Virus record (IMG/VR): IMGVR_UViG_3300042691_018174
Reading direction: 5' to 3' (one strand)
From: a virus
Length of the DNA: 64,000 nt
Part shown: positions 58,000 to 63,463 of the stretch, in pieces
How positions within the stretch are numbered: position 1 is the stretch's first letter
Layout of the letters: each line of letters begins with the position of its first letter
Made by a program: the position numbers and the translations under genes
The notes under the pieces: generated by a model
Seen by the model: the letters and a program-made list of their open reading frames with translations, nothing else
Told to the model about the DNA's origin: nothing
Databases searched by the model: none

Positions 58000-59172
58000 A
58001 TGAATATTGAAGATTATTTGATGTTATTTTCTGCTCATATAAAACCGAGCAGCCACGATCATAATATTTGTTATAGCTTAGGTTATCAAGTTATGATGGG
58101 TAAGGCTTTGACTGAAAAACAATCAATCATTGCAGTCAGACTTGTCAAGAAATATCAAAATCAATTTTTAAAATTAGGGTATTCAGATGTTCTTTCGGAT
58201 ATTGAATCTCCCAAATTCAAATATCCTTTTAGATATGTGGACAATCAAAAGTCCGTTTCAATTTCTAAAGAATCTATTGTTGTTAAATTTCCGTTTGACC
58301 AAGACATTGTAAATCAAATTAGAGAATTAACTGTAAAATCTAGTTTTATAAAACCACAGTGGAACGCCGAAGAAAAATATTGGGGGTTAGATCTCAATGA
58401 AGAAAGTTTGAAGTTTGTTAGATTAGAATTAGTAAAAAAAGGATTTCAAATATCCGATGAAGTGAATGATCTCTTGTCTCAATTTGATGAGATAGAAAAT
58501 AATTTAGAAAATCATATTCCTATGATAGTTAAAGAAAGTAATTATTATAAGGTTATAAATTGCAACAATACGATTGAAGATCAAAATCTGGAAACTGTTC
58601 TGATGCATTCTTTAAAATGCGGTGTTAATACTTACGATGAAGAAGTCCTAACTGATATTAAGAATCTAGTAACAATAGATCCTATGATGGCTGTCTTCCA
58701 AAATACTGATTGTAACAACTTTCATGTTAACAGTCGAAAATTTTCTAAAGAAGATATTATAACTTTTTTAATAAAAACAGAATTAAATGTTGCATTCTTT
58801 TTTGATGATTCCTGTGACGAAGAGCATTTCTATTCTTGGGTCTCAGAATTTAAAAAGATAGATGATTTATCTAATAAAATTGGCGCATATTTTAGAAAAA
58901 ATAATTCATTAGATGATTCAGCGAAGACATTTAATAGTATTATTAAAGAAAACAAATTAAACAAAGAAGCCAATGATCCCAATGTTGAATGGTTCCTTTT
59001 AAGTTCTAAATTTCCAAAAAGTCTAGTTAAACACAATAAAAAGCCAGACATATGTGTTTTTATTAATAAATTGATATCAACCCATTATACAGTTATGTCT
59101 TGCTTCAAAAATTGTACTATAAACTTTGTTTATACTGATCAATCTTTCGGAGAAAAAATTGTCGAATTGTAA
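58000..59172 (+). CDS. Hypothetical protein (HARP-like central motif), upstream of uvsW
   Basis: 390 aa; ALTEKQ..AVRLVKKY; VKFPFDQDIVNQIR...WNAEEKYW. Confidence 0.65.
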   Translation: MNIEDYLMLFSAHIKPSSHDHNICYSLGYQVMMGKALTEKQSIIAVRLVKKYQNQFLKLGYSDVLSDIESPKFKYPFRYVDNQKSVSISKESIVVKFPFDQDIVNQIRELTVKSSFIKPQWNAEEKYWGLDLNEESLKFVRLELVKKGFQISDEVNDLLSQFDEIENNLENHIPMIVKESNYYKVINCNNTIEDQNLETVLMHSLKCGVNTYDEEVLTDIKNLVTIDPMMAVFQNTDCNNFHVNSRKFSKEDIITFLIKTELNVAFFFDDSCDEEHFYSWVSEFKKIDDLSNKIGAYFRKNNSLDDSAKTFNSIIKENKLNKEANDPNVEWFLLSSKFPKSLVKHNKKPDICVFINKLISTHYTVMSCFKNCTINFVYTDQSFGEKIVEL

Positions 59173-60617: not shown

Positions 60618-61124
60618 ATGCAAATATTAACATTAAGAGATGAAGCGTTTAGTCTAAATGACTTACCCGAAGAAGTTGATGAGGATTGTAGGTTCGCTGT
60701 TTTAGATAACAGCGATCCTCAAAATCCAGACTATTTCTTTCAACCATTGATATTTTTAGAAAGTTTTACAAGCCCAGCCGCAGTCCTACAGATTGGTCCT
60801 TGGCAAATACAAATGCCATTAGATTGGTGTATGATTGTAGGGGATCCTGAATGTTCTGGAGAGTTAGAGGTACTGCCTATCACTAGTTTAAATGACAGAG
60901 GATTTAGTGCTTATACATTTAACCCTTTGAGTAGTTTTAAACCAGAGTTCCATCCAGTAGATATTGTAAATGTATATCAGGATGTGAAGTGGTATTTTCC
61001 AAAGATGAGATTAGGACAATTACTAGCGACTCCATTATTTCAAGGTAAAAAACCAGATTGTGCTTATTTTGTAAAAGAAGTGAGCAGACAAAGTGAAATT
61101 TTAGATTTTTCTAAATGTTGGTGA
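60618..61124 (+). CDS. Conserved-looking hypothetical protein (possible inactive Hint fold)
   Basis: 168 aa, beta-rich, directly after uvsW. Confidence 0.6.
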   Translation: MQILTLRDEAFSLNDLPEEVDEDCRFAVLDNSDPQNPDYFFQPLIFLESFTSPAAVLQIGPWQIQMPLDWCMIVGDPECSGELEVLPITSLNDRGFSAYTFNPLSSFKPEFHPVDIVNVYQDVKWYFPKMRLGQLLATPLFQGKKPDCAYFVKEVSRQSEILDFSKCW

Positions 61125-61130
61125 GGACAT

Positions 61131-61397
61131 ATGGGAACTTTAAAACCTGGAGCAACATATATCTATGAAAAGGCTGACGGCATAACTTATGCTAGAGAAT
61201 TTGGTGCAGAGCCGTCCGAAAGAAGAATAATTGGTTGGGATAGTAGAACCAGTGACGGTAGATCACTGCACGATCATATAATGGAAGATAAGATGTGGGG
61301 AGAAATGCGTCGTATGGCTAAAACCAATCCTGCTTTACAACATGCCCTAGATCAGTGTATAATAATTTATAATTTGAGTAAAGACCATGGCACTTGA
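61131..61397 (+). CDS. Hypothetical protein
   Basis: 88 aa, SD GAGGA; YIYEKADGITYAREFG. Confidence 0.65.
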   Translation: MGTLKPGATYIYEKADGITYAREFGAEPSERRIIGWDSRTSDGRSLHDHIMEDKMWGEMRRMAKTNPALQHALDQCIIIYNLSKDHGT

Positions 61398-61842
61398 TAT
61401 TAAACGAGAATTGTCAGCAGTAGATCTTCGGGATAAAAATTTTTATAGCAATCTTACTGAGGAAGAACAAAAAGAATTTAATCCTTATATATTAATGAGA
61501 TTTGTCAGCAATGTAGATGGCAACGCTGATTTGCAAGAATGGTTCGTGCTAATGACTAATGAACTAATCAATAAAAATCATTGGCAGTTTAGTAAAAATC
61601 ATAAAGGCTTACTTTGGAAATTATATTCAGGAGTTGGTGCAGGATTTAAAGTATACCACTCTTATCTTGCAGCCGGTAAAGCTGAAAAAGCAAATAAAAT
61701 TGAAAAATTGATAGCAGAACTCAATCCTACAATGAAAATGAGTGATGTAAAACTATTAACAAGCCTAATGGATAAAAATGACATCGAAGATCTTTTTAAC
61801 AAGCTGGGGTACGACAAAAAGCAAAGAAAAGCGTATGAGTAA
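61387..61842 (+). CDS. Clamp-loader small subunit-like protein (T4 gp62-like)
   Basis: FNPYILMRFVS...NELIN...H..L pattern and size match gp62-type proteins; lies in the replication block. Confidence 0.55.
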   Translation: MALDIKRELSAVDLRDKNFYSNLTEEEQKEFNPYILMRFVSNVDGNADLQEWFVLMTNELINKNHWQFSKNHKGLLWKLYSGVGAGFKVYHSYLAAGKAEKANKIEKLIAELNPTMKMSDVKLLTSLMDKNDIEDLFNKLGYDKKQRKAYE

Positions 61843-62515
61843 CTATGAGTGCGTACATTGTGGCAGAACATATTCTAAAGAAAGTACTTTAGTTGCCCAT
61901 ATGTGCGAACAAAAAAGACGTGCTCTACAAAAAGATGAAAAAAGAGTGCAAGCAGGATACATGGCATATAATAGGTTCTACAGACTTACACAAAATGCTA
62001 AAAAAGACAAAACATATGATGAATTTTGTAAAAGCCCATACTACAACGCATTTGTAAAATTTGGTAGCTTTATTAATAATATCAATCCATTATATCCAGA
62101 TAAGTTTATCGACTTTGTCATTAAATCTGGGGTGAAGTTGGATCATTGGTGTCGAGATGAATTATATGACACATATCTTTCAGAAATGATTAAAGTCGAA
62201 CCAGCAGATGCTGCCATACAAAGAACTCTCAATACTATGATGGAATGGGCAGAAGAGCAAAGTGCAAATTTTGCTCATTACTTCGATTATGTAAATTTAA
62301 ACCGAGCAGTATATCATATTTCGAATGGAATGATAAGTCCTTGGATATTGCTTAATACTGATTCTGGTAAGTCATTATTATCAAAATTAAATGATGAACA
62401 ATTAACAATAATTGGCGACAAAGTTGATCCTCTATATTGGGTTAAGAGATTTAAAACTTATCCTAGTGAAATTGTGTTAGTTAAAGAAATATGTAAAGAA
62501 ATTGGATTAAAATAA
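61835..62515 (+). CDS. N-terminal Zn-finger protein
   Basis: YECVHCGRTYSKESTLVAHMC (C2H2/C2HC-like); start ATG 61835; coupled to the mini-DnaE gene via TAATG. Confidence 0.7.
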   Translation: MSNYECVHCGRTYSKESTLVAHMCEQKRRALQKDEKRVQAGYMAYNRFYRLTQNAKKDKTYDEFCKSPYYNAFVKFGSFINNINPLYPDKFIDFVIKSGVKLDHWCRDELYDTYLSEMIKVEPADAAIQRTLNTMMEWAEEQSANFAHYFDYVNLNRAVYHISNGMISPWILLNTDSGKSLLSKLNDEQLTIIGDKVDPLYWVKRFKTYPSEIVLVKEICKEIGLK

Positions 62516-63093
62516 TGCCTGACATAGACATTGATTTTTATGACAGAGAATCTGCTTTAAAAATTATAAAGCATATTCCTGCTTCTAGATATGAAAATAA
62601 TGAATTAAAGAAGCATAATACTGGCATATATCTTCATCAAATTCCTGTAGATAAAATTAATAATATGTCAAGTATTGATTATGACGTTGCAGAAGATCGT
62701 GGATATTTTAAAATAGATTTTTTAAATGTAAGTCTTTATAAAGATATAAAGAATGAAGAACACTTGCAACAACTAATGAATCAGGAGCCGTTATGGGATC
62801 TATTGGAACAAGAAGAGTTCAGCAAAATGTTGTTTCACGTCGGAGGTCACGGGTCTATCTTAAAAATGATGAAGCCCCAGAATGTAGAACAGTTAGCAGC
62901 AGTATTGGCTATGATACGCCCTGCGAAGAGGAATTTGATTGGACTACCATGGGATACGGTGATGACACAAGTGTGGATACGCCCTGAAAACGACGATTAC
63001 TTTTTTAAGAAAAGTCATGCAATAGCATACGCAGTCGCAGTAGTAGTTCAAATGAATTTAATATGTGAAAAAATTAGTTACGGATTTTCTTAA
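62515..63093 (+). CDS. Miniature C-family DNA polymerase (DnaE/Pol III alpha palm fragment)
   Basis: PDIDIDF, KHNTGIY, GYFKIDFLNV, AMIRPAK and FFKKSHAIAYA occur in the same order as the DnaE motifs. Confidence 0.85.
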   Translation: MPDIDIDFYDRESALKIIKHIPASRYENNELKKHNTGIYLHQIPVDKINNMSSIDYDVAEDRGYFKIDFLNVSLYKDIKNEEHLQQLMNQEPLWDLLEQEEFSKMLFHVGGHGSILKMMKPQNVEQLAAVLAMIRPAKRNLIGLPWDTVMTQVWIRPENDDYFFKKSHAIAYAVAVVVQMNLICEKISYGFS

Positions 63094-63463
63094 CAGCTCT
63101 TACTAACTGAATACTTTTTCTTTTAACCCGTTTCTCGGCTATCTCATTTAGATTTACTATAGGGCCAAAAACATGCTCAACATCTTTACTATTCAAAGTT
63201 TTTATATACTTTTTGTAGTCTATGAGCTCGCCTTTGAGGAATATGTTGATTGGGATTTTTCTGTTACTTTCCCACCACCATTGTTCCCCTAAATCTAGGA
63301 AATTTTGACGAAGAGCGTTGTCCACTATGGCTGCAAGGTCATATATGCTTGTAACGCTTTCATTTTGATTGATTATGATCCCTACGATTTCAATATCATT
63401 GCATCGTATGCAGGTCAGAAACGGAAATGTTGTTTTTAATAATTCGTTGACTTGTTTCACCAT
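63074..63463 (-). CDS. Hypothetical protein
   Basis: 129 aa; FPFLTC..VGIIINQ..WWWESNRKIPINIFL; convergent with and overlapping the mini-DnaE gene. Confidence 0.7.
   Translation of the reverse strand: MVKQVNELLKTTFPFLTCIRCNDIEIVGIIINQNESVTSIYDLAAIVDNALRQNFLDLGEQWWWESNRKIPINIFLKGELIDYKKYIKTLNSKDVEHVFGPIVNLNEIAEKRVKRKSIQLVRAVKKIRN

Follow-up and report, generated by a model that had tools for sequence, protein, structure and literature searches.

[quoted passage not shown] The gene lies in the window, by which we mean the whole stretch of 64,000 nucleotides that was analyzed (IMG/VR virus record IMGVR_UViG_3300042691_018174). The data as a whole are best explained if ORF 62515–63093 encodes the C-terminal unit (hereafter C-unit) of a minimal C-family (DnaE-like) DNA polymerase encoded by two genes, and we consider this reading probable. 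The gene and its surroundings are as follows:

61334–61363, + strand: sigma70-like promoter match TTTACA-18-TATAAT (11/12) from a consensus scan, just upstream of the 151-aa gene
61387–61842, + strand: 151-aa gene, phrog_11758 (E 1e-23), the first of a local three-gene run
61835–62515, + strand: Zn-finger gene, 226 aa, phrog_11058, conserved upstream neighbor of the C-unit
62513–62517, + strand: TAATG stop/start overlap of the Zn-finger gene and the C-unit gene, read in the sequence
62515–63093, + strand: C-unit gene, 192 aa, probable C-terminal unit of a split minimal Pol III alpha (catalytic-Asp/Mg2+ part and residual fingers)
63074–63463, − strand: 129-aa gene, phrog_11637, converging on the C-unit gene and overlapping its 3' end by 20 nt

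The C-unit begins with M-PDIDIDF, and its C-family catalytic triad consists of D3, D5 and D68. Five motifs are found along its length, PDIDIDF (residues 2–8), KHNTG (33–37), KIDFLNV (66–72) and, in the C-terminal part, IRPAK (134–138) and FKKSHAIAYA (163–172). The finger residues of the dNTP site (R135-P136, K165 and H168) are also present. The motifs are collinear with those of Thermus (Taq) Pol III alpha (MPDIDTDF at 461, YRPGP at 697–701, FNKSHAAAY at about 812), and collinear matches are found in Mtb DnaE as well. The ORFs, the five polymerase motifs and the three catalytic Asp listed in a preliminary description of this DNA are thus all confirmed. The best-matching PHROG family, phrog_11778 ('DNA polymerase'), aligns to residues 3–186 over profile positions 8–194 of 197 (E 2e-65), and the full-length Pol III family phrog_405 is matched with E 2.5e-6. 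Pfam models all remain below threshold, including DNA_pol3_finger at 14.2 bits compared with a cut-off of 22, and there are no PHP, HHH_6 or OB Pfam matches on the C-unit. The likeness of the protein to C-family polymerases is far beyond chance. The phage itself is known from metagenomes only. In a megablast search the region matched no isolated phage. The exact 192-aa protein is present on seven metagenomic contigs, with a contig of up to 147.7 kb on record for it, and it is 33–53% identical to the C-units of isolated phages.

The predicted fold leads to the same family. An AlphaFold (AF2) model of the C-unit has a pLDDT of 96.3, and the top 17 matches in a Foldseek search of the PDB are all C-family polymerases. 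Structural alignment with VIA gives eight C-family entries at Z 8.1–9.7 and 14 at Z 6.3 or more, compared with Z 3.2 for the next unrelated chain. The alignments include Taq alpha (3e0d; Z 9.7, rmsd 3.7 Å, 188 aligned residues, 461–841), PolC (3f2b; Z 9.4) and E. coli alpha (2hnh; Z 9.2), with model residues 1–190 placed on 400–781/784 of the latter. The 190 modelled residues cover about 380 residues of DnaE, with about half of the span deleted. Of the palm, the ORF contains only the second half, and PHP, thumb, beta-binding and OB regions are missing; structural alignment and Pfam thus bear out the earlier statement that the PHP, thumb, OB and clamp-binding regions are absent. No sequence or fold match of the C-unit to X-family polymerases was seen.

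The gene is intact and strongly conserved. Among 8000 candidates scored, 7971 are metagenomic relatives of the C-unit, which fall into 441 clusters at 50% identity; the best 120 of the 7971 are all 191–195 aa in length. D3, D5, K66, D68 and P136 are invariant across 84 diverse representatives (84/84 each), while R135, H168 and H34 are each kept in 83. The dN/dS ratio has a median of 0.137 (range 0.047–0.258; 110 pairs). With invariant Asp residues and a dN/dS of about 0.14, the C-unit is not a relic or decaying fragment, for which the preliminary description had expected variable Asp residues and a dN/dS near 1. Residue H168 corresponds in the alignment to H760 of E. coli, the presumptive steric gate, and the conservation of this steric-gate-equivalent His points to the use of dNTPs by the putative mini-polymerase. 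The C-unit was found in 96 phage records.

The palm half that the C-unit lacks is encoded by a second gene in relatives, as had been supposed when the protein was first described as part of a split polymerase with its GRGS motif possibly supplied in trans. In RaK2 and Phosso a second small ORF (the N-unit) matches PF07733. These N-units carry GLGRGSS or GVGRGSS and end in ..EFLKY or ..EFLN. The N-unit is a separate gene of 160–180 aa that terminates in ..EFL[K/N/R] with zero or one further residue, at the point where the C-unit starts. Conversely, C-units start with M-PDxD or carry only 1–11 (once 17) residues before the first Asp, which is located at residue 2–12 in 82 of the 84 representatives. 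The GxGRGS motif is invariant in 68 N-units. Both halves occur in the same jumbo-phage genera, and an N-unit was found elsewhere in the same genome as the C-unit in RaK2, Phosso, G003, Slickus01 and two further IMG/VR contigs. The two genes are 4–220 kb apart in RaK2, Phosso, PA5oct, a complete relative of 365 kb and a non-jumbo phage of 142 kb. For example, the N-unit is about 180 kb from its own C-unit in the complete relative (364.6 kb) and about 11 kb in the non-jumbo Alishewanella phage Slickus01 (141.6 kb). Of five large IMG/VR contigs that carry a C-unit, two gave no N-unit, but both of these are incomplete (10% and 79%). The N-unit of the window's phage was found neither in the window (by tblastn) nor in the 10 kb downstream on identical contigs, and the nearest records, fragments of 18.8 kb and 36.8 kb, showed no N-unit.

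The two halves also occur as a natural fusion. A 375-aa protein encoded at positions 1066–2193 of one metagenomic contig consists of an N-unit (14–180) and a C-unit (189–370) joined by a 9-residue linker. Since no further fused forms were found, the fusion rests on this one 2.4-kb contig. A word-based search among longer proteins gave no other fusions, and the 375-aa protein has no close relatives in IMG/VR.

Structure prediction suggests that separately encoded halves assemble. For the complex model, the N-unit came from a relative with a C-unit of 70% identity. In three runs the predicted N+C complex has an ipSAE of 0.91 (best control, 0.01); solved complexes attain that mark in 58 of 80 cases and mismatched pairs in 2 of 110. 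At least 91% of the contacts are common to the runs, and the partner pLDDT is 90. The predicted interface joins N-unit residues 121–134 (the GRGS loop) to C-unit residues 2–9 (the DxD strand), and N-unit residues 151–159 to C-unit residues 165–178. However, the high score may reflect resemblance to solved DnaE structures, in which the same contacts are made within one chain.

We infer the assembly, catalytic activity, dNTP use and biological role of the mini-polymerase to be as follows. The N-unit would provide the first half of the palm, a helical scaffold with the GxGRGS triphosphate-binding loop. The C-unit would provide the second half of a Pol-beta-like palm, consisting of the D3-x-D5 and K66-x-D68 strands, and a pared-down bundle of finger helices at the site of the incoming nucleotide (R135-P136, K165-S167-H168). 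The halves would dock by completing one beta-sheet through pairing between the GRGS and PDIDIDF strands, and the rebuilt enzyme of about 360 aa would add dNTPs to a primer on a template. From the absence of PHP/proofreading, thumb, clamp-binding and OB modules, we infer a distributive accessory polymerase engaged in gap filling, repair or a specialized step, not the main replicase. Its partners would be those of a T4-type replisome, namely PolB, a clamp loader, a DnaG-type primase and a DnaB-type helicase. The T4-type replication module assumed as the setting in the preliminary description is supported, as genes for UvsX-like, UvsW-like, DnaG-type primase and DnaB-type helicase proteins flank the C-unit. 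The primase shows a weak DNAG_N match here, and a relative's orthologue has Zn ribbon and Toprim motifs. Relatives, RaK2 and Phosso among them, have PolB at another place in the genome; it was not found in the window. In the literature searched, no member of the split mini-Pol III family turned out to have been tested biochemically or genetically, and the gene goes unmentioned in the omics paper on PA5oct.

The gene immediately upstream encodes a 226-aa protein that consists of an N-terminal C2H2-type zinc finger (C6, C9, H22, C24) and an all-helical body. Its length of 226 aa agrees with the gene calls on identical contigs from metagenomes. The zf-C2H2 model matches all 30 homologues examined, below the Pfam gathering score (best E 3e-4), and in Pfam and PDB profile searches only the zinc finger was matched. 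In nearly all of the 80 IMG/VR loci the gene precedes that of the C-unit, as do its homologues in Phosso (36% identity) and RaK2 (24%). In the distant Slickus01, a gene in the corresponding position encodes a finger of the same CxxC...H...C type. The Zn-finger gene was found in 93 phage records compared with 96 for the C-unit, in the same genera. The TAATG coupling noted in the preliminary description is present here. However, it is not general but peculiar to the window's phage and a few others, with the two genes overlapping in three of 60 distinct related loci. Spacing across the 60 loci ranges from −8 to 2253 nt and is usually about 170–430 nt, often with other genes between. An AF2 model of the Zn-finger protein (pLDDT 93) gave no significant fold match. 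The identification of the protein as a divergent T4 gp59 helicase loader is not supported by hhalign (0.2–0.5%; 0.5% with a 9-member gp59 alignment). Fold comparisons with gp59 give weak echoes (Foldseek 1c1k E 1.4; VIA Z 3.5 over 96 C-domain residues), as do BFVD helicase loaders (E 0.25–0.34). The gp59 models PF08993 and PF08994 were absent from three complete relatives.

The Zn-finger protein had been proposed as the second subunit of the enzyme. The role of the complementing half falls to the distinct, far-away PF07733-matching gene that donates the GRGS motif. Another part for the Zn-finger protein is conceivable. A mini-polymerase without the DnaE thumb and duplex-binding domains may need a partner for productive primer-template binding. 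The N-unit and C-unit might then rebuild the active site while the Zn-finger protein, whose gene follows clamp-loader genes in at least one relative, grips the DNA as a dedicated subunit, for example as a DNA-binding module replacing the thumb or the beta-binding domain. Such a three-part enzyme is suggested by the position of the gene in the IMG/VR loci, Phosso and RaK2, the Slickus01 counterpart, the nearly equal number of phage records, the overlap in the window and the retention of the finger in 30 of 30 homologues. However, the spacing is variable, other genes intervene, overlap is rare, and there is no Zn-finger gene in the 1 kb upstream of the fused form. Neighborhood and co-distribution are also unspecific, because these phages have long syntenic replication modules in common. 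We therefore regard a three-part enzyme as a tentative and rather unlikely extension of the two-gene reading.

The other explanations concern the activity of the C-unit itself. The loss of the thumb and all duplex-binding domains would suit a nucleotidyltransferase that adds nucleotides without a template, producing a nucleotide signal or a tail, and many enzymes with a Pol-beta fold are template-independent. This is unlikely given the location of the gene in a replication module and the retention of R135-P136, K165 and H168, which position the dNTP against the template in DnaE and PolC. The preliminary description had named a primase as one alternative. An enzyme of primase type or one that initiates de novo, whether by itself or together with the Zn-finger protein, would fit the small size, the zinc-finger neighbor and the placement in a replication module beside helicase and primase genes. 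It is very unlikely, however, as a separate DnaG-type primase and DnaB-type helicase are encoded 1–3 kb downstream and the steric-gate His argues for dNTP over rNTP. In addition, no Toprim or AEP primase domain and no likeness to DnaG or AEP proteins was found for the 192-aa protein in Pfam, PHROG and fold searches, and to our knowledge no C-family polymerase initiates de novo. Finally, a protein of about one-sixth of the length of DnaE whose ORF lacks the first palm half could be an inactive relic, either a decaying dnaE fragment or a non-catalytic mimic of part of the host polymerase. This reading is largely refuted, and we give it hardly any weight, by the invariant triad and nucleotide-site residues, the low dN/dS, the constant length and split point in hundreds of clusters, and the conservation of a matching N-unit with an invariant GxGRGS. 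There is also little for a decoy to mimic, because the DnaE regions that bind beta, tau or epsilon are missing.

A two-gene minimal polymerase, the reading we prefer, has a precedent in print. As stated in the preliminary description, such proteins had been noted bioinformatically: the sections of Iyer, Anantharaman, Krishnan, Burroughs and Aravind (2021, Viruses 13:63, PMC7824862) consulted here describe a split minimal Pol III alpha in 'group 2.2' jumbo phages, with the giant T4-like carriers RaK2, 121Q, PA5oct and Atu_ph07 encoding it beside a family-B polymerase. Like the C-terminal unit described in these sections (phrog_11778), the window's protein is a stand-alone unit of about 190 aa with Mg2+-binding Asp residues and a template-side subdomain. 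[quoted passage not shown] Unlike the group 2.2 copies, the window's copy comes from an uncultured phage known from metagenomes, whose own N-unit and PolB were not seen. Iyer and colleagues propose an ancestral status for the minimal form. The split mini-Pol III has thus been in print since 2021, and the window adds no new principle. The fused 375-aa form, the 142-kb non-jumbo carrier and the conserved Zn-finger neighbor go beyond the consulted sections of PMC7824862. The invariant residues, dN/dS values, fold Z-scores and controlled complex prediction are likewise added by the present analysis, as are the natural fusion and the non-jumbo carrier.

Comparison with other polymerases places the C-unit further. 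Like DnaE and PolC (2hnh, 2hpi, 3e0d, 5lew, 3f2b), it has a Pol-beta-like palm with three Asp (E. coli D401, D403 and D555), a K-x-D strand, an RP motif and a KSH helix with the steric-gate His. However, DnaE and PolC are single chains of about 1000 aa or more, whereas the C-unit lacks the PHP, thumb, outer fingers, beta-binding/HhH, OB and tau-binding tail, about 380 residues are condensed to 190, and the palm is divided over two polypeptides. Cyanobacterial DnaE is also encoded by two distant genes, the products of which are spliced to full length by split-intein halves at a break in the fingers. The phage enzyme would similarly be a C-family polymerase from two separate, distant genes. However, it has no split-intein segments, and its break falls within the palm, immediately ahead of the catalytic DxD. 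An intein would have no room at the split. The halves must act as a non-covalent heterodimer. Pol beta, of the X family, is an analogue in fold and size (a Pol-beta-like palm, about 350–370 aa, no proofreading) and not a family-level relative. A similar distributive gap-filling role might be expected of the phage mini-polymerase, which differs in having no 8-kDa lyase domain and in its DnaE-type finger and nucleotide-site residues.

C-family polymerases replicate all bacterial chromosomes, but neither their origin nor their minimal functional core is settled. A palm-split C-family polymerase of about 360 aa that is abundant in metagenomic phages, with thousands of relatives, would offer an experimental handle. 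It bears on which parts of DnaE are needed for catalysis and on the way in which two chains can build up one active site of the Pol-beta type, and it raises the question of why phages with a complete T4-type PolB replisome retain a second polymerase. If the Zn-finger protein were indeed a third part, the result would be an accessory replisome polymerase of a new type among T4-like phages, and the rare 375-aa fusion would provide a ready-made minimal C-family polymerase in one chain, suited to studies of structure and evolution.

Two further genes adjoin this pair. The 151-aa protein was described as gp62-like, and it may be the small subunit of a clamp loader judging by position only. Its counterpart in Slickus01 directly follows an RFC-like clamp-loader (RFC small-subunit) gene. 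However, the sequence does not support an assignment to T4 gp62, with an hhalign probability of 0.5% and no PDB sequence match. The promoter match preceding this gene is only a lead, because the regional count of such sites is no higher than in shuffles. On the other side, all 80 IMG/VR loci, and likewise Phosso and RaK2, have a homologue of the 129-aa gene on the opposite strand, downstream from the C-unit gene. In most loci it touches or overlaps the 3' end of the C-unit gene, and in about 20 the distance is 0.5–1.3 kb.

The region contains two genes, and gene callers gave the same models on identical metagenome contigs. These genes and the motifs of the second are as follows:

61835-62515, + strand, ORF encoding a 226-aa Zn-finger protein
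62515-63093, + strand, ORF encoding the 192-aa C-unit, the catalytic half of a two-gene mini Pol III alpha
C-unit residues 33-37, motif KHNTG
C-unit residues 66-72, motif KIDFLNV
C-unit residues 134-138, motif IRPAK
C-unit residues 163-172, motif FKKSHAIAYA

The stop codon of the Zn-finger gene and the start codon of the C-unit overlap in the window sequence (TAATG), and the C-unit begins with M-PDIDIDF. All five motifs are present as written in the preliminary description.

Evidence from protein families, sequence, modeling and fold comparison identifies the C-unit as a DnaE-like core. In PHROG searches, phrog_11778 ('DNA polymerase') matches it end to end (E 2e-65), and phrog_405, a full-length Pol III family, matches residues 50-138 (E 2.5e-6). 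No Pfam family scores above threshold (DNA_pol3_finger, 14.2 bits vs a cut-off of 22). Using phmmer against PDB sequences, we identified three weak, collinear stretches in which C-unit residues 1-30, 92-138, and 157-174 correspond to Thermus Pol III alpha residues 461-488, 654-701, and 806-823, respectively. An AlphaFold2 model was produced from 84 diverse homologues (pLDDT 96.3, pTM 0.88), and its top 17 Foldseek PDB matches are all C-family polymerases. With VIA-align, residues 1-190 of the model align to Taq alpha 461-841 (188 residues aligned at rmsd 3.7 A, Z 9.7), to E. coli alpha 400-781 with Z 9.2, and to PolC 971-1296 with Z 9.4, compared with Z 3.2 for the best unrelated chain. Given these spans, the 190 residues of the C-unit represent approximately 380 residues of DnaE. 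The C-unit keeps the palm's second half and, of the fingers, an inner part. The thumb is deleted, and the PHP, beta-binding and OB regions lie beyond the matched stretch of DnaE and are missing. The structural alignment thus agrees with the initial reading of a DnaE core without thumb, PHP, OB or clamp-binding regions, and the observation of a mini DnaE core at this locus was correct.

Of 8000 candidates scored, 7971 are relatives of the C-unit, and the top 120 all measure 191-195 aa. An exhaustive search yielded 441 clusters (50%-identity representatives), the full-length ones nearly all 185-215 aa, and at least 542 loci occur in IMG/VR. Conservation was counted in 84 representatives with 28-70% identity. 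D3, D5, K66, D68, and P136 are kept in all 84, R135, H168, and H34 in 83, and D7 in 82. Across 110 unsaturated pairs, the median dN/dS is 0.137 and the highest value 0.258. Variable aspartates and a dN/dS near 1, which had been proposed as signs of a decaying fragment, are therefore not what is observed.

It had been suggested that the polymerase is split, with the GRGS motif supplied in trans. This is borne out in relatives, where the GxGRGS half is a separate gene (the N-unit, comprising the first half of the palm). Whole-record searches of the isolated phages RaK2 and Phosso identified one further small ORF in each that matches Pfam DNA_pol3_alpha. These N-units are 172 and 177 aa, contain GLGRGSS and GVGRGSS, and end in ..EFLKY and ..EFLN, the point where the window's C-unit starts. 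All of 68 N-units carry GxGRGS, and almost every one ends in EFL[K/N/R]. G003 is a complete IMG/VR relative of 364.6 kb with a C-unit 70% identical to that of the window, and its two units are ~180 kb apart; two more large IMG/VR contigs also encode the N-unit. Isolated phages carry both halves in the same genera and in nearly equal counts, separated by ~5 kb (XacN1) to >200 kb (Phosso), with ~11 kb in the 141.6-kb Alishewanella phage Slickus01. The N-unit was not found in the window or the next 10 kb, and its presence elsewhere in this phage's genome is inferred.

In Xanthomonas phage XacN1 (AP018399.1, ~133-138 kb) and Stenotrophomonas phage RAS14 (OP752703.1, ~190-205 kb), the N-unit is encoded on the strand of the Zn-finger gene, ~3-4 kb upstream of it. 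The halves are thus not invariably far apart, and this close spacing may be nearer to their original arrangement. In translations inspected by eye, the N-unit gene is recurrently followed by one small gene and then a GroES-like (co-chaperonin-like) gene (relatives' stretches L097:531-1237 (-), L008:2226-2576, L009:1968-2486), and in G003 a MazG-like NTP pyrophosphohydrolase-like gene comes after the latter.

A single natural fusion, P0319 (375 aa), joins both halves in one ORF through a 9-residue linker (..KEFIK-DNKEGIYNI-ADFDID..); it stayed the only case when further fusions were sought. Residues 14-180 form the N-unit, 37% identical to that of G003, and residues 189-370 the C-unit, 38% identical. 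The ORF (L098:1066-2193) is on a 2.4-kb ENA contig (ERZ28653423 scaffold). This contig is AT-rich (25% GC), and its convergent downstream gene faintly resembles the window's 129-aa gene. We also predicted the complex of the window's C-unit with the G003 N-unit, each with its own alignment. All three runs gave an ipSAE of 0.91, a mark attained by 58 of 80 solved complexes and by 2 of 110 mismatched pairs; the highest-scoring of three controls gave 0.01. At least 91% of contacts are common to the runs, and the partner has a pLDDT of 90. In the predicted interface the GRGS loop (N-unit 121-134) packs on the PDIDIDF strand (C-unit 2-9), and the C-terminal segment of the N-unit (151-159) on the KSH helix (C-unit 165-178). 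These are within-chain contacts of solved DnaE, so the score may stem from that likeness. The model shows that the halves fit like a DnaE palm, rather than that they bind.

The preliminary description further considered that the Zn-finger protein and the C-unit could form a two-subunit primase or a protein-assisted polymerase. Neither the primase nor the partner reading is supported. Genes for a DnaG-type primase and a DnaB-type helicase are immediately downstream of the C-unit; the DNAG_N match of the primase is weak, and a zinc ribbon and Toprim motifs are seen in its G003 orthologue. Additionally, the widely kept H168 corresponds in alignment to H760 of E. coli, presumed to be the steric gate that keeps out ribonucleotides. 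Because of these features, a primase role for the C-unit is unlikely.

The Zn-finger protein combines a helical body (AF2 pLDDT 93) with a C2H2-type finger (C6, C9, H22, C24) that was recognized in each of 30 homologues. Fold searches with the protein gave no significant match. It is not the GRGS donor, as that half is another gene. It may be an accessory subunit of the mini-polymerase: its gene precedes the C-unit at almost every locus examined, including RaK2 and Phosso, has a positional counterpart in Slickus01, and is equally distributed among isolated phages (93 records vs 96 for the C-unit). It may also be merely another replication-module protein, as overlap of the genes is limited to 3 of 60 distinct loci and the gap is commonly ~170-430 nt, extends up to 2.25 kb, and often contains other genes. 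Assignment as a gp59 helicase loader is not supported.

Iyer et al. 2021 (PMC7824862, sections 3.4.1, 3.5, Fig. 3b) reported a minimal catalytic module of Pol III alpha from 'group 2.2' jumbo phages. In their description the module is divided between two proteins, an N-terminal one that binds NTP and a C-terminal one that binds Mg2+ and template; their genes lie far apart, and a family-B polymerase occurs alongside. The authors suggested a role in one-strand synthesis or repair. We found no experimental study of the split family in the literature searched. The window's C-unit is a new, metagenome-only member of this computationally described family.

Several conserved genes surround the block. 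A 390-aa gene (58000-59172, +) precedes a UvsW-like helicase, and genes of 168 aa (phrog_11279) and 88 aa (60618-61397, +) lie between the helicase and the mini-polymerase block; none has a Pfam match, and the latter two keep their synteny in most relatives. The region's best sigma70-like promoter match (61334-61363, +, TTTACA-18-TATAAT, 11/12) is just before a 151-aa gene and fits a single transcript of 61387-63093, in a region where the number of such sites is not above that in shuffles. A 129-aa gene (phrog_11637; 63074-63463, -) is convergent to the C-unit and shares the final 20 nt with it. In RaK2, Phosso and 80 of 80 IMG/VR loci, a homologue follows the C-unit on the other strand, abutting or overlapping it in most. 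The same module occurs in Slickus01 (L108, OQ508957.1 62373-74852; also L109), in the order RFC small subunit, 142-aa protein, Zn-finger protein, 131-aa protein, C-unit, convergent gene, primase, and helicase. At 141.6 kb this is not a jumbo phage, and the split mini-polymerase is therefore not restricted to genomes >200 kb.
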